From Escherichia phage ECP2303: a stretch of 64,000 nucleotides of DNA. The stretch lies in the sequence record PP261279.1, one strand, 5' to 3'. The position numbers and the translations under genes are program-made. Numbering within the stretch: position 1 is the first letter of the stretch; every line of letters begins with the position of its first letter. Below the pieces are notes generated by a model. That model saw only the letters and a program-made list of their open reading frames with translations, had not been told where the DNA came from and ran no database searches. This document shows positions 2,192-35,588 of the stretch, in pieces.

Positions 2192-2222
2192 ACAAACAAA
2201 AAGCCCCCGCCGAAGCGAGGGC
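2192..2222 (-). terminator. Rho-independent terminator after the tail fiber gene
   Basis: Minus-strand RNA GCCCTCGC-UUCG-GCGGGGGC hairpin followed by UUUUUGUUUGU, just 3' of the stop at 2230. Confidence 0.6.
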
Positions 2223-2229
2223 AAAACAG

Positions 2230-5200
2230 TTACTTCAATTTCTCTTGCAATCCAGTAACAACCTCTGTCAATTTTTTAACCTGCTCCTCAAGGGCGGTTA
2301 TTTTATCGTCCTGTTCCCTGCAAACCTGGACAAGCAAGCCTGTTACAGCTGCGTAGTCAACGTTATAGAACCTTTCCTCAGTCATTAAAGGAATGCCGTC
2401 TTGAGTAGGACCTTCTATTTCCTTCCTTTTCACGAAAGATCCTACTGCCTCTGGCAATGCTTCCATAACCTCTTGAGCAATCACGCCTGCATAAGGCATA
2501 CCATTCTCTTTCAAGGTGTAGGTATAGCCTTTCATCTTTCTAATTGCTTCCAGAGCGTTAGGTATGACCTCTATGTTATCCTTCAGGTCCCTATCGGAAC
2601 TTTGACTAACAGTAGTACATTCTACCGTGCCGTTGACAGCAAAATATCTTGATTTAGCCTCATCTGCCTTAGCACCACAGTGGAATACCCAGCTGGCGAC
2701 TGTTGAGTTATCACTTATCTGAAACTCCAGCACATTCTTCCTATCTGCGCCATTACCCCAATAGTACAACCTACCTGTATTAGAAGGCATGTTGGAAGTG
2801 TTGGTAACATCCGCACCACCACCTGTGTGTATTGTGAACTCCGGTTCAAGATTGGATCCTTGAGTTTTTAAAGTGATACCTTTACCACCAAGCTGCTGCC
2901 AATGGCCCCATGTGAAAACACCACCTATCGTTGTTCCATAACGCAGGAATTTTTCTCCAAGATATGTCGTATATTCCTGTACGCAACTCTCTGGAACGTT
3001 GGCATAGTTTCTGTAGACAACGAGAGTACCTGCCTGGGAGCATGGGTAGTTTTTATCAAGTGCGGCCTGAGCATTAGCCTCCTGATGATAAAAACCCTCT
3101 CTATCCCCTTTGTAGTCGTTAAGGTCATTAGTCCCCAGCCCTTGACCACGGTGCTGAATAACTTTGTTCCATGCCCTATGGTTACCACCCTCGATAGATC
3201 TGGTGTATAGCTGATCAAGGCGACCAGCCATTTGGAAGGCATAGTTTCCAGAAAACGCCACAGACAGCCCACCAACAACCATCGAACCTTCAGGTCCGTT
3301 GACATTGCCTGCCATTATTTTAGAAGGGTTGTTAGGACCAAACTGGTTGTTCCAGTCTGCACCAGTATGGCATACAAAACCACCTGGAGCTGAGAAAGTA
3401 CCATCCTTGTTGAAGTTGTAGAATCTATGAGCTGTGCCTACAACATCGCGAACAATAACTTGACCAGCTTCCGGAGTAGATCTGAACTCTGCCTGGCCTT
3501 TGAGACCAGCACCATTACCGCATTTAGAGGTAAACGTACCGTTAGTCAGATCCTCTGTCCCATCAGATGCACACTGGAATCCTGCATTAGAGAATAACGC
3601 CTTTCTAGGACTGCCGTAGCACAAATAGTCAAGACCGTCTGCCCATAGCTCGACTTTTGGCATATTCATTTTGCTCATCACAGCATAGCGTTCAGCAGTG
3701 CCTATATAGTGCCACTGTGTGCCGCCGCCAGTGTAGAACCCTGAAGTACCTTTAAAATCAACAATAGGTCTGGTATTGGTGTTGTTATCTCCAAGAATGG
3801 CAAGATTCAAATCTGCTGACTGAAGAGGTGCAACGAACTTAACCCCATCCTGATTGTCTGTTACAGAGCCAACCTGGTAATCTTGCTCTCTGGTAAACAC
3901 TTCGACAACATTTCTACTTGCGTATATGCTGACAGGGAAAGCACGAGCCTCTACATAGAAAGCAACATACTCTTGTTTACCCCTTGTTGGAGCAACCATC
4001 CCAAGAAGTGCTTTTTCATTCTGGTAGAAATTTACTACCCCGTAGAAAGCGTCCCCTCTGTCTGTCCAACCACCAGTTCTATAGTGACACTGTAAGGTAG
4101 CACAGTTCATAGGGTCACCGCCGGATGACGATCTGGTAACTATGGTAATATCAGTGCCAGTTGCTGGAGCATAGTACGGATCTGTTCTAACGATAATTGG
4201 GTAGTATTTCCCATCTTCCATCCCTGCGGTTCTTGGCAGTGTTAAGAAGTCTTTTACACCTGCTGCTATAGGAACTTTGAACAGATTCTGAGCATCTGCT
4301 AAAGTTGTGGCTCCAGTACCACCTGCGGCGTGAGGTAAAGGTTCCCACTTGGCCTTCCGGTTGTTATAAACACCCCATTCCAAACTGCCGTTACCGGATT
4401 CGTCCATCCCGCCATCCCAGATAACCATCTTGGCGGCTTTCTTGGACCCCCAAAAGCCTCTTTCTGCTCCTGAACTACGGATCCACTCCCCAAGTCCCCA
4501 GTTTGTCAGCTGACCAGTAAGATCCCCAACCTGCATATATTTAGGACAGTCTAATACACCGTCCTCGCGGAAACCTAAATATCTATGAGTTTCAGATCCT
4601 TTTGCACCTTTGTGGAGGTGGATTGTCAACCAAGCCTTATTGTCGTTTCTTACCTCAGAATAGATCCTATAACCATGCTCAAGAATACCATCAGTATTAT
4701 ATTTATCTCCATGGAGAATACCTGAGGCCGATTTAACATCTCCAGAGTATTGAGCTAAGTAAAGGTGCCCGAAGGCTGGCGAGTTGTTTTTACCAAGGCC
4801 GATATGAGATCTGAAAGTATCATCGTTACGAGGTCTGACCATCGGCTGCCATGCAGTCCACTGGTTTGTGTTGGCCTGATAGGTTCTCAAATACCAAACA
4901 TCTACGTTAGAAAATGGATAGTATTCCTGACGACAACCTGTACCGCCGTTAGCATTGTTCTGCCAAACAATCAAGTGACCAGCACCAGAACCTGCAGGGT
5001 AACCATTTGCCTCAGTTGCATAAGCAGTCATCGGCTGGTAGTATACGCCATCCTGATTACCAGTCAAGTTATTGATATTGAAATTTGGCTCAAGGGCTGC
5101 ACGTTGCTTATAGAAAGCACCGATATTGATACGGACTCCAGCGGCATCTCTAGCCCCTGTGCCGCCTTGCTCTATAGCAAGAGGTTGCCACGAAGCTGTT

Positions 5201-6030
5201 TGTTGGTTCCACATACCCCAACGGCCTGTTGCATCAAGCTGCAAGTACCCTGCCGTATTTAAATCATCTCCAGCACGGATAACTGTTCTTGTTGGGTTGT
5301 TTGCCTCTAGGCGTTTAAATTCATCACGAAGTGCTATTCTTTTCGTTGTTGCTACACCGTTGGTTACTGCAATGGTGTACATGGCTCCGGTGGTAGCGCC
5401 ACGGAAAATACCATCAACAGTTGTAGTATCACGACGAGATACCACACCGTTCAGAAATTTTTCACCAGCTGCTACAGAAGGGTAGTTGGTAGTTCTTCCC
5501 TCTTCAATAACTGCAGGGCCAACAAAGTTATCGAGGTGAATAACATCGCCTACAGTGTGCACTGTACCAAAATCTACACGCTGTGCAAGTGCTTTGGCAT
5601 CGTTAGCTGTCTGAACAGTAACATCCATTACATCCTGGACAGACTGCCCTTCGGCTGTCATGATCATAGATGCGCCAATGGTAGATTCCAGCTCCTCCCT
5701 TAATGACGGATCTGTATATACCATCCATGCAGCGTCAGTAATCCCACCATCGGAGTACGGTGAAGACAGTGCAGGAACAGTGTGTGGAAATTCGCCTTTC
5801 CAACGTAGGTAGAGGTCTTCCTCTTCGAAGTAGGCAAAATCCATTGGGCCGTTTAACTTACCACCTTCCTTAAAGGAGATTACATGAGAAACAGTCCCAT
5901 CAACATGGACAACATCGCCAATTTTTACACGACGGGTCAGGTCTGGTTGTTGAACAACCAGGTAATCATCCTCTGTCACTGCGGTAGTGGCAGGAAGAGA
6001 TTCAATTCTGACAACTTTAATATCAGCCAT
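2230..6030 (-). CDS. long tail fiber / tailspike with C-terminal intramolecular chaperone (peptidase S74-type) domain
   Basis: 1266 aa; C-terminus SDRDLKDNIEVI...GYTYT...coiled coil matches the autoproteolytic chaperone domain of endosialidase/L-shaped fibers; N-terminal ~110 aa homologous to the N-terminus of the 222-aa protein at 8665-9333. Confidence 0.8.
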   Translation of the reverse strand: MADIKVVRIESLPATTAVTEDDYLVVQQPDLTRRVKIGDVVHVDGTVSHVISFKEGGKLNGPMDFAYFEEEDLYLRWKGEFPHTVPALSSPYSDGGITDAAWMVYTDPSLREELESTIGASMIMTAEGQSVQDVMDVTVQTANDAKALAQRVDFGTVHTVGDVIHLDNFVGPAVIEEGRTTNYPSVAAGEKFLNGVVSRRDTTTVDGIFRGATTGAMYTIAVTNGVATTKRIALRDEFKRLEANNPTRTVIRAGDDLNTAGYLQLDATGRWGMWNQQTASWQPLAIEQGGTGARDAAGVRINIGAFYKQRAALEPNFNINNLTGNQDGVYYQPMTAYATEANGYPAGSGAGHLIVWQNNANGGTGCRQEYYPFSNVDVWYLRTYQANTNQWTAWQPMVRPRNDDTFRSHIGLGKNNSPAFGHLYLAQYSGDVKSASGILHGDKYNTDGILEHGYRIYSEVRNDNKAWLTIHLHKGAKGSETHRYLGFREDGVLDCPKYMQVGDLTGQLTNWGLGEWIRSSGAERGFWGSKKAAKMVIWDGGMDESGNGSLEWGVYNNRKAKWEPLPHAAGGTGATTLADAQNLFKVPIAAGVKDFLTLPRTAGMEDGKYYPIIVRTDPYYAPATGTDITIVTRSSSGGDPMNCATLQCHYRTGGWTDRGDAFYGVVNFYQNEKALLGMVAPTRGKQEYVAFYVEARAFPVSIYASRNVVEVFTREQDYQVGSVTDNQDGVKFVAPLQSADLNLAILGDNNTNTRPIVDFKGTSGFYTGGGTQWHYIGTAERYAVMSKMNMPKVELWADGLDYLCYGSPRKALFSNAGFQCASDGTEDLTNGTFTSKCGNGAGLKGQAEFRSTPEAGQVIVRDVVGTAHRFYNFNKDGTFSAPGGFVCHTGADWNNQFGPNNPSKIMAGNVNGPEGSMVVGGLSVAFSGNYAFQMAGRLDQLYTRSIEGGNHRAWNKVIQHRGQGLGTNDLNDYKGDREGFYHQEANAQAALDKNYPCSQAGTLVVYRNYANVPESCVQEYTTYLGEKFLRYGTTIGGVFTWGHWQQLGGKGITLKTQGSNLEPEFTIHTGGGADVTNTSNMPSNTGRLYYWGNGADRKNVLEFQISDNSTVASWVFHCGAKADEAKSRYFAVNGTVECTTVSQSSDRDLKDNIEVIPNALEAIRKMKGYTYTLKENGMPYAGVIAQEVMEALPEAVGSFVKRKEIEGPTQDGIPLMTEERFYNVDYAAVTGLLVQVCREQDDKITALEEQVKKLTEVVTGLQEKLK

Positions 6031-6065
6031 TCTTTCTCCTGAAAGGGGGCAAACAGCCCCCTATG

Positions 6066-8663
6066 TTAAAGGTACAATCCACGGTATTGAGCATAGAGGC
6101 CCAGACCGCGAAGGATTTCGCCAGAGTGATAGCCTACCGGATCAGAAACTGCCCAGCAGCCGTTTAAAACATTATCCCCATTAATGAAGTGGTGCTTTTG
6201 CAGTAGCTTCACACAGGCTTCTACAACAATGTCTATTTGAGGTATTGTCTCTGAATACCCACACAGACCTAGCCAGCAGCAACCTGCAAGCCATTCACCT
6301 ACCACCCACATCCTGTCTCCTCTGTCTTGATAAGAATATCCCCCAGAGGTGTTAAAGTCTGTAGGCAGATTTCCTGAATGAGATGACTGGAATCTGTTGA
6401 GGAACCATGCCCATTTCTGGCAGAACAGGAATAGTCTTTCATCAACAGGTTCTTTATGTTTCTTGAGCTCATATATTGTGCGGCACGCAGCAACAAAAGA
6501 TCTTGACTGGAGCTTAGAGTTATCTACCATCTCCCACCAACCAGTCAACCCTTCATTACCTCTTTGCCATACATAACGTGAGGCAACTGGACCCTCTGTC
6601 TTAAATGTATTATTATACCAGACTTGAGCGTCATACAGAAAGCCTATTGTATTTGACAATCTATGGCGATCTATGTTTTCTGCACCCATACAGTAGACTG
6701 CTGGGTATTGCATGCCAGGGTAGGGCCAATTTGGCCTTTCCTCTAAGAGATAGTTTTCCTTATCTATCACCTTTCCGGCAGGGAACACCCCTGGCGTGTG
6801 CCTGTATGCACCTTGCTTGTAGTTTCTGACATAGCAATCGCCAACCTTAGCGGTTGATTCTGTCTTGCTTGCCATCCATACGCTAAACCAGATTAGATAA
6901 GCATCCCTGTCTGCAATATAGAATTGCGGCAGCGTGTTGACGCAGTACAGATCAAACAAGCCATTACCTATCTGCCTGTCGCTTAGGCTGAAATCTACAG
7001 AGGTGAGCCCCTTAGGATTAGCAAAGAAAGGTTTAATCTCTTCTTCGGTGTGATGAGGTTGTGTCGGATCTAGTTTGAAATCTCCTAGAGTAAGAGTTTC
7101 TGTTATCCATTGTCCATTAGTGGCATATAGATCAGCATACCATAACCACCTGTCTTTGTCAAGAAATTTGACCCTTACCATCTCATCATCTGATCGATAA
7201 GTTACTGAGTTTAAAGAAATCTCTCTTCCAAAATTGAAAGTTACTTTACCTCTTGCTATATTACAACGGGTGAAGTTGTCAGAGTGGTTGTAAATGTCGG
7301 TATCATACTGCATACCAACACCAGCACCACCGCTTACGGCAATGTTTTCCTCTTTAGGTAAGAGATACGGATTACCGTCTTTACCAACCACCTCTACGAA
7401 ATCAGTAACCTTGGCAACTATTTCTGTTACCTCTGCACCTCCAAAAGGGACACCTATCCTGTACTGTTTTTTGTTATTGTTACCATCATTAAGGATGAAA
7501 TGCGGCTGGAACAGAACACCTTCTCCTCCGAAATTCATAACAATTTCAGCATCTCTACCTATTTTGTATGTAGTCCCTTTTTGAATTATTTCGCAAGGCT
7601 GGCGTGCGTTCATTCTAAAATTGATATACCCGTCACTGTCCCTGCTCATGACAGGAACTGTTCCTGCAACAAGACAAGCACCATCTGTGAACGGTGCCTT
7701 AATCAACGTGGTCTTTCTAAACAGCTTGTCGTAGGCGTTTATATCACTGAAATTAAGCAACTTGTTGTAAGACTGTTTAAACGCGGTGTAATACTTTTCC
7801 TCACCTGTCAAGGTGTAGAGTTGATAACAAGCGTCACACCACATTTCTTCCCCGTCCAACTCCGGGGCCTGATTATCTGCAACCACGTTTATAGGATTTA
7901 CAATTACAGGGGATCCTGCAGGTATCACCGATCCACCCTGCTCTTGAGGTAATCTTACACAATAGGTCACCTTGTGGCTGCCTGTAACACCCTTATCTTG
8001 TAATTGGATTGTGCCGAACTCTACAGATGTATGACCACTGTCGGCTATGCTACCGTTAGCCCAATAGCGGTTACCATCCCATGCTATATACCACTCAACC
8101 CACCAACTTAATCCGGATGTTGTCCAATCCGGGTTAGCATCTGTGCCGCCGTAAACATCAGAGTCTACAGTGTTTCTTCCTAACACACCGTTATACGCTT
8201 GGAATGCCTTGTCCAGGTATTCCCCCCATGTCGGAGATCCAGCTGGGATTTTTCCTCTACCATTGGTAAAAGACACCACCACATCTTTAAACCCACCATG
8301 TGATGGAACCCCGTCTGTGGATAGAGGGTAGTGGGACAATCTTTGCATTTTACTTTCTACAGCATATGCACCCAGAAGATGACTATTGTAAGCTTCCCAA
8401 GCATCTTTTGCCCTATCCAGATAGAAATCGCTTTTCGATGCCCTATATGCTTCAATGTATCCCAGAATCAACACAGCTTGGGACTCATGCATTGCCCAAT
8501 CATTATTTATCTTATTACCTGCCCACCCTGCAGCTATAAGACCATCAGGGTTTACTAGCTTATTTTGTGTAGGGGTGTTGGTAATACCTGTGTTGTTATC
8601 GAGGCACTTCCTGTGCCCCTCAATCATCTGAAATACGTTATCAATGTTGTGTTGAATACGCAT
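6066..8663 (-). CDS. putative tailspike enzymatic subunit (polysaccharide depolymerase/glycosidase-like)
   Basis: 865 aa; translationally coupled to the upstream 222-aa anchor-domain protein (GGAG then ATG 1 nt after its stop); Trp/Tyr/Gly-rich composition typical of carbohydrate-active beta-helix or alpha-toroid proteins; no motif confirmed. Confidence 0.45.
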   Translation of the reverse strand: MRIQHNIDNVFQMIEGHRKCLDNNTGITNTPTQNKLVNPDGLIAAGWAGNKINNDWAMHESQAVLILGYIEAYRASKSDFYLDRAKDAWEAYNSHLLGAYAVESKMQRLSHYPLSTDGVPSHGGFKDVVVSFTNGRGKIPAGSPTWGEYLDKAFQAYNGVLGRNTVDSDVYGGTDANPDWTTSGLSWWVEWYIAWDGNRYWANGSIADSGHTSVEFGTIQLQDKGVTGSHKVTYCVRLPQEQGGSVIPAGSPVIVNPINVVADNQAPELDGEEMWCDACYQLYTLTGEEKYYTAFKQSYNKLLNFSDINAYDKLFRKTTLIKAPFTDGACLVAGTVPVMSRDSDGYINFRMNARQPCEIIQKGTTYKIGRDAEIVMNFGGEGVLFQPHFILNDGNNNKKQYRIGVPFGGAEVTEIVAKVTDFVEVVGKDGNPYLLPKEENIAVSGGAGVGMQYDTDIYNHSDNFTRCNIARGKVTFNFGREISLNSVTYRSDDEMVRVKFLDKDRWLWYADLYATNGQWITETLTLGDFKLDPTQPHHTEEEIKPFFANPKGLTSVDFSLSDRQIGNGLFDLYCVNTLPQFYIADRDAYLIWFSVWMASKTESTAKVGDCYVRNYKQGAYRHTPGVFPAGKVIDKENYLLEERPNWPYPGMQYPAVYCMGAENIDRHRLSNTIGFLYDAQVWYNNTFKTEGPVASRYVWQRGNEGLTGWWEMVDNSKLQSRSFVAACRTIYELKKHKEPVDERLFLFCQKWAWFLNRFQSSHSGNLPTDFNTSGGYSYQDRGDRMWVVGEWLAGCCWLGLCGYSETIPQIDIVVEACVKLLQKHHFINGDNVLNGCWAVSDPVGYHSGEILRGLGLYAQYRGLYL

Positions 8664-8664
8664 C

Positions 8665-9333
8665 TTAGATAGCTCCTGCGATAATCAGTGCCCCGTACCA
8701 AGTTAACCCGTTGTCGTAGGTTTCCAACTTGAAAATATCTGTTGCACCAGCTGTAAATGTTAGGATAGGATCTCTTCCGTAGGACCATTTAACATTGTCA
8801 GGCCAATAGACTTTGTTGCCGCCAGAGGTCTGAGTAATGCATACGGTTATAGTTCTCGCCACCCCTTCAAGACCTTCTGTTTGATTTTCAAAAGAGATTG
8901 TGGTATTTGAAGTTAGTCGAACTTTAAAGGTATCCGCAACTTCAAGATCCATATCAAGCTGACCACCGATAGATCCGTAATCAACTATTCTGCCATAAGA
9001 AGTTGCAGCAAGCTCACCAAAAACAGACCATGCATTTGCAGACACACCCCCAGCACCCTCTACAGTGGAGTCTGGGAGGATTATTTTAGGATAATCCCCG
9101 TTCCACGTGTAGTAGCGCTTAGTCTCTGGGTCATAAGCAAAGTCCTTCTTGCTCTTAAGATAGCCACCCTCTGTGAAATAGACTATCTTAGTAATGCTAA
9201 GATCGTTGACAACATCGTCAATCTTAGCCTTTCTTGTCCCATCAGTCTGGTTGACAACCAAGAAGTCATCACTCAGGACTGTTTCTGCATCTTCAAGATC
9301 TGGAATTGGTATTGTAGGATAAGCTACAGCCAT
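8665..9333 (-). CDS. tail fiber/spike adaptor with conserved N-terminal particle-anchor domain
   Basis: 222 aa; N-terminus (DDFLVV..TDGTRKAKIDDVV...EGGYL...DFAY) aligns with the N-terminus of the 1266-aa fiber (DDYLVV..DLTRRVKIGDVV...EGGKL...DFAY). Confidence 0.5.
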   Translation of the reverse strand: MAVAYPTIPIPDLEDAETVLSDDFLVVNQTDGTRKAKIDDVVNDLSITKIVYFTEGGYLKSKKDFAYDPETKRYYTWNGDYPKIILPDSTVEGAGGVSANAWSVFGELAATSYGRIVDYGSIGGQLDMDLEVADTFKVRLTSNTTISFENQTEGLEGVARTITVCITQTSGGNKVYWPDNVKWSYGRDPILTFTAGATDIFKLETYDNGLTWYGALIIAGAI

Positions 9334-9342
9334 GATTTCTCC

Positions 9343-10059
9343 TTAGTTAACATCAATAGCACGACCAGACTGGTTGGCAATGGCCTCATCATTGGAGGTA
9401 GCAATAACACCAGAGTATTCGCGCTCATCTGGAGCAAGCGTCCAGGTATTGCGGTTAATGGTTTGTTCTGCCTCAGTCATCAGCAGATCTTTATCCTGAG
9501 TCAACAGAGAGCCTACAGGGATCGGGTTTTCCATCTCAGGACCAGCATACTGGTTCCACCATGTGGCATCTCCGGTTCTAGGCAATCTGAAGTTGATCAG
9601 ATAGTACAGTTTATTAGCCCACTTAATCCAACCCTCATCATCACAGAGAGAGGTTGTCCCAGAATCAGGCTGTGGGTAGGTGAACTGATCAAGACCTACG
9701 AAAGCCAGCCTTACAATCTCGTTCTCTTTGGTAACAACCTCAAAGAACGCTTGGTATGTTCTCGATCTTCGATCCATGGTAGACTGGAAGTTTATGATGT
9801 TTAGCACATCCGGCTCTTGTCTTGCCACTTCCATAATCTTGTTATCAAGAACAGTCTTCATGACCTTCTTACTGAGAAAGTCCATATAAGGGAAGCCAAA
9901 CAACTCGTCAAAGTACCAGCTCCCCTTCCACGTATTAAACCTCATCCACAAGCGCTGGCGCAGACTTACTTGGTTTGAATCTATCAACTCAAGACCTTTG
10001 TCTATCGCCAAATCGCCTGTCTGTGGGTCCATCAATATATCACTATAAAGCGTAGCCAT
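9343..10059 (-). CDS. baseplate wedge protein (putative)
   Basis: 238 aa between the spike and the fiber genes; N-terminal D..GDLAIDKG...W..F...W pattern reminiscent of small baseplate wedge proteins. Confidence 0.4.
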   Translation of the reverse strand: MATLYSDILMDPQTGDLAIDKGLELIDSNQVSLRQRLWMRFNTWKGSWYFDELFGFPYMDFLSKKVMKTVLDNKIMEVARQEPDVLNIINFQSTMDRRSRTYQAFFEVVTKENEIVRLAFVGLDQFTYPQPDSGTTSLCDDEGWIKWANKLYYLINFRLPRTGDATWWNQYAGPEMENPIPVGSLLTQDKDLLMTEAEQTINRNTWTLAPDEREYSGVIATSNDEAIANQSGRAIDVN

Positions 10060-13130: not shown

Positions 13131-15470
13131 TTACCAAAGATCTGTTGACATAAAGTTAATATCCTTGTTGTTCTCCCACTCAAGTTTTGCATCAAGTATT
13201 TTGCTAAACTCCCCCTCATCTATTGAAATCGTGATTTTACCATCACTAATCTCTAAAGGGAGCATTTCCATAGTTCTTAATTGAGAAGCAAAACCAGGGC
13301 CACCGGGCAACGGAAGAGTCCCTCCCGGTAAGGTGTCCAAAGGATCAACAAACCCGTTACCTCCAGATATGATATCTTTGCGAATCATATCGCTGATAGT
13401 ATCCAGTTGCTGATTTCTCTCACTCAGTGGGTTGAAACGGTCATTAAATAACTCCCCGGCGCTTAATATTGTACCGATAATACCAAGCTTACCAAGCAGG
13501 CCAACTTTACCACCAGGTGTCTTGAGGCCACCTCCCCCTTTTCCTGCCGCACCACCACCAGATCCTTCTGTGGTAGCTGCACCTGCACCTGCTGCTCCAG
13601 CTGCACCTCTTATAGAACTAAGGAATTTGAAGGTTTTTACAAGCATAGATGCCATGACAAAACCTTTTGTCAGGGCGTTCACTACCAGCATAATGGCAGC
13701 AGCAAACCCTGCCCATTTAGCATAGCTAAAGGTGTCATTAAGCTCTTCAGAATATTCCTTCGTCTTAGCTGTTATGAGTCCCCATTTAATCCCCCATTCA
13801 AGGAAAAACATGCGGATCTTGACTATGGTATTGTTTAGTTCACCAACTACCCAGTTGAGACCTCTCACAAAACCACTAACAAAATCACCAGAGGCATCCC
13901 ACACAAATTGCAAAGTCTCACCAGTGCGAATCAGTGTATAATAGAACTCTGTTAGTTCATCAGCCCAACGGGTGAATAGTTTCTGACGAGACAGTTCAAT
14001 GAAGGTTTTCAGTCTGTTTTCTGCCAGTACGTTAGACTTCTGCATTCTTTCATAACCAGCTGCAGATGCCTCGTTCATGTACTTAGCCACATACTTCATG
14101 ATCTTGGCTGTCTTAACCTCACCTTTCTTCATCATGTCCATGAACTGATCCATGGATAGTTCAGAAAGACCAAAAGCCTCTTTGGTGGCTTTGATAAAAG
14201 GTTCGTATGCACCAGGCAATGCTTCAGCAAGTTGTTGCTTCAGTTCTTCGGACATTACCTGTCCTTTACCGAGCATTTGCTGGATTGCCATGATGCCACG
14301 CTGGTATTTTACCTCATCTGCACCGTAAGCAGCAGCATACTGTGAGTATGCAGAGAATAGCTCATGCACCTCTTGATTTGTCATCTGGTTTTTGGCGTTT
14401 ACCGCCATCTGGGCGTAACCTTGAAGACCAGATTTGAGATCAAAACCAAGACGCATAGCCTCTTGCTGGACAAACGCAACCTCACTGTTGGCTTTGTTTG
14501 GATCTCCAGTAACAGCAGTAAGAGCAGCACTTGCCCCCTCCATCATGTGACCAGATCTGTTCACAGCAGTAAATCCAGAGAAAGCCGTATACGCAGCTGT
14601 TGCATTAATAACAGACCTACGTAAGTCTCTCATGGCATCACCAAGTGTAAGCGTTTGGCTGGTGGCGCTTTTAAATCCAGACTGCAGAGCTGACAGGTGG
14701 GCGTTAAAGGTTGACTTTTTCATCTCTCCGCGAGCAAACCTGGACTCTAACTCTGAGTATCCTGGCAAGCTTCCACGGAATCCGGCCCCATACTTGGCAG
14801 AAAGTCTTATCGCAGAGTTGTAGAGGTGGGTTCTCCTTGCCTCACGATCCGACATAAGCTTATTATCCATACCAGCTTTACTGTCTCTTCTTAGCTGCCT
14901 ATGATAACGATTCATAGCGGCTGTCTGAGCTTTCACAAGGTTAGGGTCGGAAGCCACACCACCCATATTAGGGTTACCTGGGATATACTTGAAAGATTTG
15001 GCATTAGCCAAAACTCTTGCCTTAGGTGCCTTATAACCGCCGTAAGACACTGGTGCAGATTTGGTAGCCTTTTTGGCCTCTTTAGCTTGCTGCTGGTAGA
15101 ACTTACGCATCCTAGCCATTTCTGGATTTTTAGCGGTAAGATTACCCACAGCTTGTTTACGTCTCGCGTTCTCCCTACGTTCTATTGCAGCCCTTACTGC
15201 AGCCTCTTTCTTGGCCTGTGCTACGCTCTCCCTGTGCAGTTTAGCATTTGCCTGATATTGCTGTCTGGCAACCCGCTGCATTGTTTGCTGGGTTTTAACA
15301 GCCACTGCCTGCCATCTACTCATTGGGTTGGCTGAGTTAAAATCCTCGCCCAGTTTCCTGAACTCCCTCCCAATACTGCGAATTTTCTCTACAGCTTTTT
15401 TGTAGGAGGAGTTCTCTATCTCAAAGCCAATCTTGTTGACTGTTGTGGCAACTATTTTGTTTGTAGCCAT
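13131..15470 (-). CDS. tail tape measure protein
   Basis: 779 aa; long helical, coiled-coil-rich sequence with a Gly-rich segment (GAAGAGAATTEGSGGGAAGKGGGG); located after the chaperone pair. Confidence 0.75.
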   Translation of the reverse strand: MATNKIVATTVNKIGFEIENSSYKKAVEKIRSIGREFRKLGEDFNSANPMSRWQAVAVKTQQTMQRVARQQYQANAKLHRESVAQAKKEAAVRAAIERRENARRKQAVGNLTAKNPEMARMRKFYQQQAKEAKKATKSAPVSYGGYKAPKARVLANAKSFKYIPGNPNMGGVASDPNLVKAQTAAMNRYHRQLRRDSKAGMDNKLMSDREARRTHLYNSAIRLSAKYGAGFRGSLPGYSELESRFARGEMKKSTFNAHLSALQSGFKSATSQTLTLGDAMRDLRRSVINATAAYTAFSGFTAVNRSGHMMEGASAALTAVTGDPNKANSEVAFVQQEAMRLGFDLKSGLQGYAQMAVNAKNQMTNQEVHELFSAYSQYAAAYGADEVKYQRGIMAIQQMLGKGQVMSEELKQQLAEALPGAYEPFIKATKEAFGLSELSMDQFMDMMKKGEVKTAKIMKYVAKYMNEASAAGYERMQKSNVLAENRLKTFIELSRQKLFTRWADELTEFYYTLIRTGETLQFVWDASGDFVSGFVRGLNWVVGELNNTIVKIRMFFLEWGIKWGLITAKTKEYSEELNDTFSYAKWAGFAAAIMLVVNALTKGFVMASMLVKTFKFLSSIRGAAGAAGAGAATTEGSGGGAAGKGGGGLKTPGGKVGLLGKLGIIGTILSAGELFNDRFNPLSERNQQLDTISDMIRKDIISGGNGFVDPLDTLPGGTLPLPGGPGFASQLRTMEMLPLEISDGKITISIDEGEFSKILDAKLEWENNKDINFMSTDLW

Positions 15471-32462: not shown

Positions 32463-33017
32463 TTACTCCCCGCTGTCAATAGCAAGACTCATTGCAATAC
32501 GGTATGCCTCTTCTAATGGTAAGAGTCTCCCCCACACATCCCAACCGACATCAAACTGCCTGCCAAACAACTGCTGTGTGGTTCCGTGAGCATGACCGAA
32601 CAGTTGGACTGATCCGTGAGGCTTTCTGTTCCACTTTGCAAACTGGTAATGGCTCATACAGATCAAATTCTTGTTGTGGCGAAGCTCGTAATAATCTACA
32701 ACCTCATGACCGAACTCTTTCATAATTCTGACAGTCGTTCTTGTGTCATGGTTACCACGAACAAGAATAATATGTCCGTTCAACATATTTAGAACATCTG
32801 GAAGCAGTTTGTTGATATTCTTATCATTAGTGCACGCAATATCCCCCAAGTGAAACACAGTGTCTGCAGGTGACACAACAGAGTTCCACTTGGTGATGAT
32901 TCCCGCATTCATACTGTCAAGATTGTGATCATACTGAGATCTGTGTTTTTGACATGAGTCGAACTCCATTACCCGCTGGTGGAGAAAGTGTGTGTCGCTT
33001 GTTACAAAGTATTTCAT
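32463..33017 (-). CDS. calcineurin-like metallophosphoesterase (putative RNA/DNA 3'-phosphatase)
   Basis: Start at ATG 33017 (GAGGAA RBS); motifs SDTHF, GDIACT, GNHD, GHAHG correspond to metallophosphatase motifs; coupled to the kinase gene. Confidence 0.65.
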   Translation of the reverse strand: MKYFVTSDTHFLHQRVMEFDSCQKHRSQYDHNLDSMNAGIITKWNSVVSPADTVFHLGDIACTNDKNINKLLPDVLNMLNGHIILVRGNHDTRTTVRIMKEFGHEVVDYYELRHNKNLICMSHYQFAKWNRKPHGSVQLFGHAHGTTQQLFGRQFDVGWDVWGRLLPLEEAYRIAMSLAIDSGE

Positions 33018-33024
33018 ACATTCC

Positions 33025-33435
33025 TCATTTAAGTTTAATGCAGTTTTTAAGCTGGCGTTCCATACGATCCACAACCCTGTCTGGAACATCATGAATGCTT
33101 TTATTACCATGGCGGTTTTCAACCACGATCACGGTATAACTATATCCATGACTGATCGCCATGTCAATATATTCTTGCACATATTTTTCTTTTGTAAACG
33201 TATTACTTACCACGATACGGTCGTAGCCCATACGCATCATATCTTCTACGTTATCTTTGCACCATTTTGCTGCAAGTGTTACTTTACTTGCATCCCAATT
33301 GTAATTGCCGTCATCGTCGTACCAGAACATATCGTTCTCAAAATGTGGATACAGACCTTCTAAAGATAGCGCATTTGCCAGTGTTGATTTGCCAGACCCT
33401 GGTAGACCACGCACGATATATAGCATTTTAGACAT
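33025..33435 (-). CDS. P-loop polynucleotide kinase-like protein
   Basis: Start at ATG 33435 (GGAGAG RBS); Walker A GLPGSGKST near N-terminus as in T4 Pnk kinase domain; 136 aa. Confidence 0.6.
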   Translation of the reverse strand: MSKMLYIVRGLPGSGKSTLANALSLEGLYPHFENDMFWYDDDGNYNWDASKVTLAAKWCKDNVEDMMRMGYDRIVVSNTFTKEKYVQEYIDMAISHGYSYTVIVVENRHGNKSIHDVPDRVVDRMERQLKNCIKLK

Positions 33436-33463
33436 AGTAACTCTCCGTTTTAATTTTAATGAT

Positions 33464-33492
33464 AGTATACCTAACTGTTTTGTTAATTTCAA
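33464..33492 (-). promoter_or_regulatory. sigma70-type promoter for the kinase/phosphatase operon
   Basis: Minus-strand TTGAAA, 17-nt spacer, TATACT; about 30 nt upstream of the kinase start. Confidence 0.4.
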
Positions 33493-33495
33493 GTG

Positions 33496-33524
33496 TTGAC
33501 ACCAGGTTATTTGTGTGGCAGAAT
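33496..33524 (+). promoter_or_regulatory. sigma70-type promoter opening the plus-strand block
   Basis: TTGACA, 17-nt spacer ending TGTGG, then CAGAAT; divergent from the minus-strand promoter. Confidence 0.4.
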
Positions 33525-33556
33525 AAAGGGACAAAATGACAAATGAGGAATGTATG

Positions 33557-34471
33557 ATGAAGTATTTTAATGCAGACGACCTGGTTGACAAAGGTCTTGT
33601 AACCAGCAGATATTACCCAGATCTTGGATTAAAGATCTACAAATATGCCAGAAAAGTATTCTACAACAATTTATGGCATTTGTCTCCGCGTTTACTAGAG
33701 TGCCGAGGCATTGTTGTCGGTAATGAAGGAAATGTTGTGGCATGGCCCTTCACAAAAGTGTTTAATTTGGGAGAAAACTCCACCAACCTGCCTGACAATA
33801 AACTTGTGACGGCGGTAGAGAAAAAGAACGGATTCCTTGGTGTGGTATCATCTCATAAAGGTGAACTATTGTTTTCAACAACCGGGTCTCTTGATTCTCC
33901 ATATTGTAACCTTGCAAAGGAAACCATCCAGGAGCAATGTGGTAATTTAGATCTCATCAAAAAGGTTATGGGCCATGAAAACATGACATTCATGTTTGAA
34001 ATTTGTCACCCTTCAGATCCGCATATTGTTCAGGAAGACCATGGCGCATATTTGATAGGTTGCAGATATAACGATTCTGGAATAATGCTACCAGAAGCAG
34101 CTTTAGATGGGATTGCCAAATACCTTGGTGCAAAACGTCCTCACACTGTGCGTGAAATTCCGTTCAGCTATGCAAAAGAATTAGCTGCAGAAACAAGAGG
34201 TGAAGGGTATATGATTCGTAAGCCTTACTACCCTTATGATCTGCAGCTGAAGATCAAGTCTCCATACTATTTGGCACGGAAGGCCGTAATGAGGGGTAAA
34301 GCTTGGAAGATTTGGGATGATGATATCTTTAAACGTATTGACGAAGAGTTTTACGGCATGGTAAACTTCATTCGTAACAATTACACAGAAGATGTGTGGA
34401 ACTGCCTCCTAGAGCAGGAACGCCGTGAGATACTTGACTGCTATTTCCACAACGAGGACTATATGCAATGA
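33557..34471 (+). CDS. RNA ligase 1 (T4 RnlA-like)
   Basis: LECRGIVVGNEG and FNLGEN match T4 Rnl1 (LECRGIMFEMDG, FNLNEN); nucleotidyltransferase motif I KKNGFL matches KEDGSL; start assigned to ATG with GAGGAA RBS (track start 33536). Confidence 0.75.
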   Translation: MKYFNADDLVDKGLVTSRYYPDLGLKIYKYARKVFYNNLWHLSPRLLECRGIVVGNEGNVVAWPFTKVFNLGENSTNLPDNKLVTAVEKKNGFLGVVSSHKGELLFSTTGSLDSPYCNLAKETIQEQCGNLDLIKKVMGHENMTFMFEICHPSDPHIVQEDHGAYLIGCRYNDSGIMLPEAALDGIAKYLGAKRPHTVREIPFSYAKELAAETRGEGYMIRKPYYPYDLQLKIKSPYYLARKAVMRGKAWKIWDDDIFKRIDEEFYGMVNFIRNNYTEDVWNCLLEQERREILDCYFHNEDYMQ

Positions 34472-34818
34472 AGAAGTTGATTGTGTGGCTGGATGACTTG
34501 AGAGATCCGTCAAATTATGGGCTCCCAGATGCTCTTTGGCTAAAGAATTCCTCTGAGTTTATGGATTTTATTAACGATAAGGGAAAGCTCTACAGGCGCG
34601 TTTCTGAGTGGCACATGGACAACGACCTTGGAGAGGTATTTGAAGGGTACGATTGCCTATCTATGCTGGAGGAAAAATTTGTATTTGGTAAGCCTCCTGT
34701 AGTTGACAACGTGAAGATTTTCGTGCATACTTCTAACCCATCAGCTGCTCGTAAATTCATGCTTGCTGCTGACTCGTTTAAAAAGTTTGGAATAGAGATT
34801 AAACAAAACATCTACTGA
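34468..34818 (+). CDS. hypothetical protein
   Basis: 116-aa ORF coupled between RNA ligase and Sir2-like genes; no motif recognised. Confidence 0.4.
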   Translation: MKKLIVWLDDLRDPSNYGLPDALWLKNSSEFMDFINDKGKLYRRVSEWHMDNDLGEVFEGYDCLSMLEEKFVFGKPPVVDNVKIFVHTSNPSAARKFMLAADSFKKFGIEIKQNIY

Positions 34819-34826
34819 GGACACTT

Positions 34827-35588
34827 ATGCGACGACTGATCATTATCTCCGGTGCTGGTTTGAGCGCTGAATCTGGTATCCCAACTTTCCGATCTGGTGG
34901 CACTGCAATGTGGGAGAATTTCAGCATCGATGAGGTGTGTAACATCCACACCTTTGCCAAGAACTACTATAAGGTTCATGACTTTTACAATGCACGGCGT
35001 GTAGCTCTTGGCAGTGTTGATCCTAACCTTGCACATCTCCGGATCGCTGAGTGGTATTCCCGCTGGTCTGGTCGTGTGATCAACCTGACCACCAATGTAG
35101 ATGATTTGCTGGAGCGTGCTGGTGTAAAACATGAAGATATTTTACATGTCCACGGATATTTGCCAGAAATAGTCTACAAGGATGATGAAGGGAGTAACGT
35201 CATTAAAGACATTGGATACTCTGAGGTAGATGCAAGCAAGTATACTTGGGTTAAGCCTAATGTAGTGTTCTTCGGAGAAGTAGCTCCAAAGTATACAGAC
35301 ATGTATGACCTGTTGACTTCTCTGACGAGCAATGATATGGTTATCCTTGTAGGGTGCTCCAACACAGTTATCAATTTTAACTGGGAGCTATTCCCTGCCT
35401 GTAATAAGGGGACCAAACTGCTGATCGTTAACAAATACGACTCACAGCATTTAGGGGAGAATGGCATTTCACGTAGTGACATTTACCAGTATGAGGATCG
35501 CGGCATCCCAGTTTGGTTTAACGGGGCTGTTGACGCTTTCTCTGATAAAACATTCATTGACATCGTAGAAAACTTTATGGAACTGTAA
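34827..35588 (+). CDS. Sir2-family (sirtuin-like) NAD-dependent protein, lacking the zinc ribbon
   Basis: GAGLSAESGIPTFR, TTNVDDLLERAG, catalytic-type HG (LHVHGYL), VVFFGE, LVGCS; no CxxC...CxxC zinc motif. Confidence 0.8.
   Translation: MRRLIIISGAGLSAESGIPTFRSGGTAMWENFSIDEVCNIHTFAKNYYKVHDFYNARRVALGSVDPNLAHLRIAEWYSRWSGRVINLTTNVDDLLERAGVKHEDILHVHGYLPEIVYKDDEGSNVIKDIGYSEVDASKYTWVKPNVVFFGEVAPKYTDMYDLLTSLTSNDMVILVGCSNTVINFNWELFPACNKGTKLLIVNKYDSQHLGENGISRSDIYQYEDRGIPVWFNGAVDAFSDKTFIDIVENFMEL

Follow-up and report, generated by a model that had tools for sequence, protein, structure and literature searches.

How does a virion protein that carries no recognisable attachment domain find its place on a phage tail? 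The question is raised by two neighbouring genes in a 64,000-nucleotide (nt) stretch of Escherichia phage ECP2303 (PP261279.1; "the window" below means this whole stretch). They lie on the minus strand between positions 6066 and 9333, encode proteins of 222 and 865 amino acids (aa), and are followed by the gene of a 1266-aa long fibre. A sequence-only reading of this DNA had placed the three open reading frames (ORFs) correctly (Table 1) and had described the pair as a two-gene tailspike, with the small protein as an adaptor for a separate, probably enzymatic, subunit. In this study, we have compared both proteins with their relatives in other phages and prophages. Based on this comparison, we hold, with a probability of about 0.6, that the two genes form a receptor-binding cassette in which an adaptor holds an anchorless, glycosidase-like protein. 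The comparison supports the adaptor reading; that the large protein physically docks on the adaptor, and that both are displayed at the baseplate periphery, is what we infer from the sequences, and the enzymatic activity of the large protein, like its substrate, is presumed.

The window belongs to an rV5-like E. coli phage of the genus Vequintavirus: over the region 6066-9333 it has the same sequence as Escherichia phage ECP2309 (100% identity), and 105 other rV5-like records have 95-99% DNA identity to the gene pair. By position and size, the 222-, 865- and 1266-aa genes correspond to rV5 gp43, gp42 and gp41, and mass spectrometry has found all three proteins in rV5 virions (PMC3606486). The N-terminal half of the 222-aa protein is an attachment module shared with the long fibre, as the sequence-only reading had noticed. 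The two N-termini are 38% identical over 99 aa (residues 8-105 against 7-105; E=4e-18, BLASTP), both contain the blocks DDxLVV, TR[KR]xKIxDVV, EGGxL and DFAY, and both exceed the gathering score (25 bits) of Pfam PF18668, Tail_spike_N, the TSP1/gp66 N-terminal domain, with 41 bits for the 222-aa protein and 40.9 bits for the fibre. The adaptor anchor also matches N-terminal regions of solved tailspikes (9occ_G, 8x8m, 5w6h and 4oj5), TSP1, TSP3 and TSP4 of CBA120 included, and the N-terminus of rV5 gp43 had previously been likened to that of the P22 tailspike (PMC3606486). Of the 15 proteins of the tail locus in ECP2309, the identical phage, the 222- and 1266-aa proteins are the only ones to carry this anchor. 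The 865-aa protein was rightly said to lack it: we found no similarity even at E<=10 and no match to PF18668.

The C-terminal half of the 222-aa protein, by contrast specific to its partner, is a predicted all-beta domain (aa ~115-222; the C-domain hereafter) that is conserved only in proteins accompanying the 865-aa family and is 42% identical to that of gp140 of phage phi92. Its best fold matches, all of them weak, are phage attachment or branching modules, including the N-terminus of CBA120 TSP4 and a T4 gp9-like protein. The 222-aa protein thus combines the two parts that an adaptor should have, a virion anchor (aa 1-107) and a separate, partner-specific domain that would serve for docking.

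The genetic linkage of the two genes also suggests that they work together. Two separate tblastn searches of 50,697 phage records, one with the C-domain alone and one with the 865-aa protein alone, had the same yield, 524 records and 532 places, and a near-identical breakdown by genus, which puts the cassette in about 1% of sequenced phage genomes; the hosts belong to Escherichia, Salmonella, Vibrio, Erwinia, Klebsiella, Stenotrophomonas and Burkholderia. In all nine of the loci that we inspected, the small gene lies immediately ahead of the large one (the window, a T4-like metagenomic contig, a Felix O1-like contig, a Burkholderia prophage, a Phapecoctavirus, PVP-SE1, a Rosemountvirus, a Kolesnikvirus and phi92), with exactly one copy of the C-domain per locus. 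Between these loci, both the N-terminus of the small protein and the genomic neighbourhood vary. In the T4-like contig, the Felix O1-like contig and the Burkholderia prophage, where the large-protein homologues are only 26-28% identical to the 865-aa protein, the gene directly upstream still ends in the C-domain, while its N-terminal part is entirely different. Could the adjacency reflect nothing more than the packing of unrelated late genes into one operon? All genes in this cluster are tightly spaced, as such packing would have it, yet two independent queries gave identical counts and near-identical taxa, and adjacency has been kept across phage and prophage backgrounds, at least eight in number, that are divergent and differ in the neighbouring genes. 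Co-occurrence and adjacency have effectively refuted this explanation already, and we regard it as very improbable.

Members of the 865-aa family that seem to do without a small partner point the same way. An exhaustive profile search found 363 representative members, most of which begin at the family's own N-terminus. Some, however, carry a fused lambda gpM-like Phage_min_tail domain or make up the C-terminal part of gpJ-like proteins of about 2000 aa (the distant fused members are P0069, P0071, P0092, P0106 and P0122, at about 1000 aa, and P0072 and P0127, at about 2000 aa), and another variant has a 277-aa N-terminal extension in the syntenic position of the small gene. No separate C-domain gene was found in the readable loci of fused or N-extended members. 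The adaptor model predicts just such a pattern, with a domain conserved for the partner, an N-terminus that varies with the virion, and direct fusion as an alternative; the adaptor role proposed for the 222-aa protein gains support from co-occurrence, adjacency, the variable N-terminus and the fused members alike. Since the distant members are fused to gpM-like and gpJ-like proteins, the barrel module appears to be used at siphophage-type tail tips as well, through direct fusion. One unusual member is P0067 (293 aa), in which an initial stretch of ~195 aa that matches the N-terminal region of the 865-aa family leads straight into a C-domain of the adaptor type (residues 203-282, E=3e-20). Recombination, truncation or a chimeric assembly may account for this architecture, which hints that the N-terminal ~190 aa of the large protein are a unit separable from the rest.

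The same data bear on another explanation, in which the small protein is itself a short fibre or receptor-binding protein with the C-domain as its tip, the large protein is attached elsewhere, and adjacency reflects shared function or a dependence in assembly or chaperoning. PHROGs labels many small C-domain proteins "tail fiber protein", the 222-aa protein among them (phrog_7760, E=5e-119), and the cryo-electron microscopy study of phi92 treats gp140 as a stand-alone fibre candidate (PMC13450770). The authors' own AlphaFold 3 models of candidate fibre proteins, gp140 included, nevertheless fit the fibre II density poorly (PMC13450770). Against this explanation also stand the lack of any recognisable anchor in the large protein outside its fusions to Dit- or gpJ-like domains, and a one-to-one co-occurrence in fixed order across unrelated contexts, including a prophage and the head/neck position in Rosemountvirus. 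A transient chaperone relationship is excluded, because both proteins are virion components (PMC3606486). In spite of the missing co-divergence signal described below, which would also suit a separate fibre, we therefore think a short-fibre role improbable.

The junction between the two genes is compatible with joint synthesis of adaptor and partner, at a strength that the operon context limits. Read on the minus strand as ...GCAGGAGCTATC TAA G ATG, it places the 865-aa start exactly 1 nt after the 222-aa stop, as had been stated, and the AGGAG Shine-Dalgarno sequence of the large gene sits inside the end of the small one (AGGAG-N5-TAA-G-ATG). Six of the eight other loci have TAATG, a 1-nt overlap of stop and start, and the gaps between small and large gene over all nine loci are -1, 0, 1 or 12 nt. 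Such a junction with its internal Shine-Dalgarno sequence would favour coupled, near-stoichiometric synthesis of the two proteins. Since genes are packed closely throughout the late operon, the coupling is not special in itself. We also considered, and rejected, a split gene and a programmed frameshift, as there is no slippery site and stop, Shine-Dalgarno sequence and start are kept in all loci.

What is the anchorless partner? The structure prediction called for in the sequence-only reading gives a glycosidase-like barrel (AlphaFold 2; predicted local distance difference test, pLDDT, 70). Long helix pairs are predicted at 59-95, 269-306 and 655-860, interrupted by two beta-rich insertions (aa ~100-260 and ~329-613) that resemble the jelly rolls of carbohydrate-binding modules (CBM) and CIA30; the predicted fold is the (alpha/alpha)6 barrel of the six-hairpin glycosidase superfamily. 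We found no central parallel beta-helix body like that of classical trimeric tailspike depolymerases, and the label "tailspike" should be dropped in that sense. The family profile matches hairpin motifs of glycoside hydrolase (GH) family 76 and of cellobiose 2-epimerase, the GH76 match in the PDB covering one motif of ~33 residues. Sub-threshold Glyco_hydro_76 matches occur in three of 44 diverse family members, which are only 17-56% identical to the query (best E=0.0034; the query itself has no Pfam match). Across these 44 members, E60, D270, D502, E849, W274, W699, W715 and R721 are near-invariant, with E60, D270 and E849 at the starts of predicted barrel helices, and no His is conserved. 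AGE-type epimerases have a conserved His pair, which is of mechanistic importance. Going by what is generally known of these families, the predicted site would fit the glycosidase type better than an AGE-type epimerase. The 865-aa protein is therefore predicted to be enzyme-like, as had been suspected, but it is no beta-helix tailspike and belongs to no defined GH family by sequence: it matched none of the family models of GH8, GH48, GH76, GH88 or GH105.

A complex could also form without catalysis, if the large protein were a scaffold or a lectin "arm" that binds glycans or carries fibres. The failure to match any GH family at sequence level would be expected in that case, the (alpha/alpha)6 fold is common to non-hydrolases, the large insertions look like CBM/CIA30 jelly rolls, and both L-shaped arms and fibre density without an assignment are seen in phi92-type virions (PMC13450770). 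The near-invariant carboxylates at predicted helix starts, on the other hand, look more like an active site than a scaffold, and phi92 gp141 is listed as a glycosidase, an entry attributed to Schwarzer et al. 2012 in the tabulation of PMC5380687. On balance we consider a non-catalytic arm unlikely. A separate candidate identity, the NGR/ECA deacetylase receptor-binding protein of Vequintavirinae, was tried and rejected: the best BLASTP match to the N4 160-kDa protein (taken as gp65 from its position after gp64) had E=0.36, and the NGR receptor-binding protein is a different gene, of the phi92 gp142 type. The two receptor-binding specificities suggested earlier understate the equipment of this virion, which has more than two receptor-binding proteins.

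In the reading that we prefer, the N-terminal ~107 aa of the adaptor, an anchor of the same kind as that of the long fibre, would plug it into the baseplate or a fibre hub, and its C-terminal beta domain of ~105 aa would hold the 865-aa protein, which, without an anchor of its own, is predicted to begin directly at the first barrel helix. The latter would be a glycoside-hydrolase-like module with an (alpha/alpha)6 barrel, to which beta-sandwich domains of carbohydrate-binding appearance are added, and would most likely bind, and probably cleave, a conserved host surface polysaccharide. That the glycan target is a conserved one is suggested by the near-invariance of the 865-aa protein within Vequintavirus, where the large fibres, by contrast, are variable (large fibre genes are the variable genes among these phages, PMC8594841). 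The protein would then serve as an accessory, invariant receptor-binding or depolymerising unit beside a variable long fibre.

Several observations weigh against this reading. The pairwise divergences of C-domain and large protein are poorly correlated (mirror-tree r=0.18 over 7 pairs, an uninformative value); between Phapecoctavirus nieznany and PVP-SE1 the large protein is 74% identical and the C-domain 45%. The Rosetta-stone signal, from a comparison of the N-terminal extensions of P0038, P0041 and P0043 with the C-domain, is weak: P0041 gave the sole hidden Markov model match (E=2.6e-4), with an hhalign probability of 6%, and we do not rely on it. The spacing of the late operon is tight throughout, with 9 nt upstream and 35 nt downstream of the pair. 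No Pfam or NCBIfam glycoside-hydrolase family matches the 865-aa protein above threshold, and no PDB sequence matches it (single-sequence searches of Pfam, NCBIfam and PDB sequences gave no match at all). The (alpha/alpha)6 fold is also found in epimerases, terpene cyclases and non-enzymes, and the AlphaFold 2 models have moderate pLDDT values (70 and 51), with the anchor half of the adaptor unmodelled. A word-indexed homologue search gave six relatives of the large protein and four of the small one, and a profile-based search for the small protein returned mostly Burkholderia SPRY proteins. We also observed that the adaptors of Phapecoctavirus nieznany and PVP-SE1 differ in the presence or absence of the Tail_spike_N domain; in this couple of phages, the adaptor seems to evolve, or to be exchanged, faster than its large partner.

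How does the pair compare with known systems? We rate it as belonging to the adaptor-mediated or branched receptor-binding complexes, which are a known kind. Its direct homologues are the orthologous pairs gp140/gp141 of phi92 (the 865-aa protein is 35% identical to gp141, E=6e-177) and gp51/gp50 of PVP-SE1, both with a 1-nt overlap at the junction. Unlike the 222-aa adaptor, phi92 gp140 (157 aa) lacks Tail_spike_N and keeps only the ~45-aa N-terminal peptide. We found no treatment in the literature of the small and large proteins as a complex, either for these two pairs or for others, and the 2026 structure paper on phi92 considers gp140 alone and does not mention gp141 (PMC13450770). By eye, the first ~40 residues of gp140 (MADLTTIKVSDLPVTTSVSDTDYFVTDQSGITKKTSL...) are like the N-terminus of the endosialidase gp143 (MSTTITNLPETSKVNSSDYLVLDQPDKTVKSTV...; phi92 locus L014, 4239-4712 and 9765-12521), and this peptide also resembles the N-termini of the 222- and 1266-aa proteins. 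BLAST supports the likeness only for gp140 against the 1266-aa protein (E=7e-6). This short peptide may be a shared attachment element in rV5/phi92-type phages.

The branched systems of CBA120 (Kuttervirus; TSP1-4) and G7C (gp63.1/gp66) are built entirely from trimeric beta-helix or esterase spikes, each of which brings an N-terminal docking domain of its own, whereas here the adaptor has 222 aa and no enzymatic body, and its partner is a predicted (alpha/alpha)6 barrel without a recognisable anchor. In K1-5/K1E/SP6-like podophages, a small separate adaptor of the gp37 type links two enzymatic tailspikes to the tail, as the 222-aa protein putatively does with its partner, and the fibre I density of phi92 has been compared with the L-shaped fibres of K1-5-like podophages (PMC13450770). 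We detected no sequence relationship to those adaptors, however, and both the myovirus baseplate context and the partner fold, neither sialidase nor beta-helix, are different. With respect to the six-hairpin glycosidases (GH8, GH48, GH76, GH88, GH105) and AGE-type epimerases, the 865-aa barrel differs in being split by two large beta-rich insertions, in being a virion component, and in lacking a GH Pfam match and a conserved His pair; a literature search found no relevant (alpha/alpha)6 or six-hairpin phage tail glycosidase. Finally, "evolved" Dit and gpJ-type proteins of siphophage tail tips carry carbohydrate-binding or -hydrolysing modules, and distant relatives of the 865-aa protein are fused in the same manner. 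Unlike in those fusions, the module here is a separate polypeptide that would need a dedicated adaptor.

A bolder possibility, tentative and in our view doubtful as a whole, is that the pair is a portable "dock-and-display" cassette, made of a ~105-aa docking domain and an (alpha/alpha)6 glycosidase, that is retargeted by swapping the adaptor N-terminus or by fusing the enzyme. Candidate sites would be the myovirus baseplate, possibly the Rosemountvirus neck, and siphophage Dit or gpJ, and the gp140-gp141 complex of phi92 (gp43-gp42 of rV5) would then be the unassigned fibre density, for example fibre II or the arm of fibre I. As a separate observation, the Rosemountvirus cassette (Salmonella phage vB_SEnST11_KE24, locus L008, 4725-8305) lies between head-completion/neck genes and genes for an Ig-domain protein and the sheath, outside any baseplate cluster, and its adaptor has a coiled-coil-like N-terminus. 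The module may be displayed at another virion position there, such as the neck; a literature search gave nothing relevant on Rosemountvirus receptor-binding proteins. A DUF7941 protein is encoded upstream of the cassette in a T4-like contig (locus L002, 7010-7573), and in another contig (locus L011, 5228-6001) upstream of P0043, a large protein with an N-terminal extension. This protein may represent a third conserved component of that lineage.

Table 1. Coordinates of the gene pair, its parts and flanking features in the window (aa, amino acids; ORF, open reading frame).
Feature	Position	Strand	Remarks
238-aa baseplate protein, directly upstream of the 222-aa gene	9343..10059	-	phrog_4233
222-aa protein, putative adaptor (rV5 gp43 / phi92 gp140 homologue)	8665..9333, stop codon included	-	ORF
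Adaptor N-terminal anchor, aa 1-107	9013..9333	-	~45-aa N-terminal peptide plus Tail_spike_N (aa ~51-105)
Adaptor C-terminal all-beta domain, aa ~115-222	8668..8991	-	proposed docking domain for the 865-aa protein
Putative coupling junction	8661..8677	-	AGGAG 8677-8673, TAA 8667-8665, spacer base 8664, ATG 8663-8661; sequence read
865-aa protein, (alpha/alpha)6 barrel, predicted glycoside-hydrolase-like (rV5 gp42 / phi92 gp141 homologue)	6066..8663	-	ORF
GC-rich hairpin GGGGGC-TGTTT-GCCCCC, then TTTC	6045..6061	-	sequence read; in the 35-nt spacer between 865-aa stop and 1266-aa start
1266-aa long fibre (rV5 gp41 homologue)	2230..6030	-	ORF
Fibre anchor, aa 1-105	5716-6030	-	paralogous to adaptor anchor
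Fibre Peptidase_S74 intramolecular chaperone, aa 1145-1196	2443-2598	-	PF13884
Intrinsic-terminator-like hairpin with T-run, directly after the 1266-aa gene	2203..2222	-	terminator scan: 8 pairs, 7 GC, tail TTTTTGTTTG

The pair is embedded in a minus-strand operon for a myovirus tail and baseplate, with the order tape measure (13131-15470), Dit-like tube initiator, plug, hub, spike and 238-aa baseplate protein, after which come the 222-, 865- and 1266-aa genes. The 238-aa protein is 25% identical (E=1.8e-15) to phi92 gp139, which is the sheath initiator (PMC13450770). In Septuagintavirus, also of the Vequintavirinae, this neighbouring baseplate protein is present, while the gp43/gp42-type pair is absent from the virion list (PMC11370258), in line with an accessory role of the pair. 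The chaperone domain at the C-terminus of the long fibre scores 55.5 bits (cut-off 22). Public records annotate the genes variously as "tail fiber", "tail protein", "sialidase domain protein" and "lateral tail fiber protein with glycosidase domains". The strong hairpin after the 1266-aa gene suggests that the three genes end a transcription unit there. The GC-rich hairpin in the spacer ahead of the fibre gene received no terminator call in the scan; as a weak attenuator, or through RNA stability, it might set the ratio of long fibre to upstream products.

Two further observations do not concern the cassette itself. The GC skew of the window turns from negative to positive near 34 kb (within ~33000-35000), where the structural-gene block gives way to the rest of the window and the coding strand switches. 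Records named "Campylobacter phage" also match this E. coli rV5-like sequence, 18 in the DNA search and 23 in the protein searches (for example MG065652, MG065644 and MG065682). The three in the DNA-match table have 98.0-98.1% DNA identity, and a fourth, MG065682, reaches 99.1% at the protein level. They are more likely mislabelled records or contaminating coliphages than genuine Campylobacter phages.

In conclusion, our results define a widespread two-gene cassette and draw attention to a highly conserved, putatively glycan-active virion protein in about 1% of sequenced phage genomes. The rV5- and phi92-like phages are valued for their broad host range, and the cassette offers a testable assignment for fibre components in their virions. 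Treating gp43/gp42 (gp140/gp141 in phi92) as one adaptor-enzyme unit gives a concrete complex for fitting into phi92-type fibre maps. If the docking domain is indeed modular, it could also be used to attach other cargo to phage tails for display.

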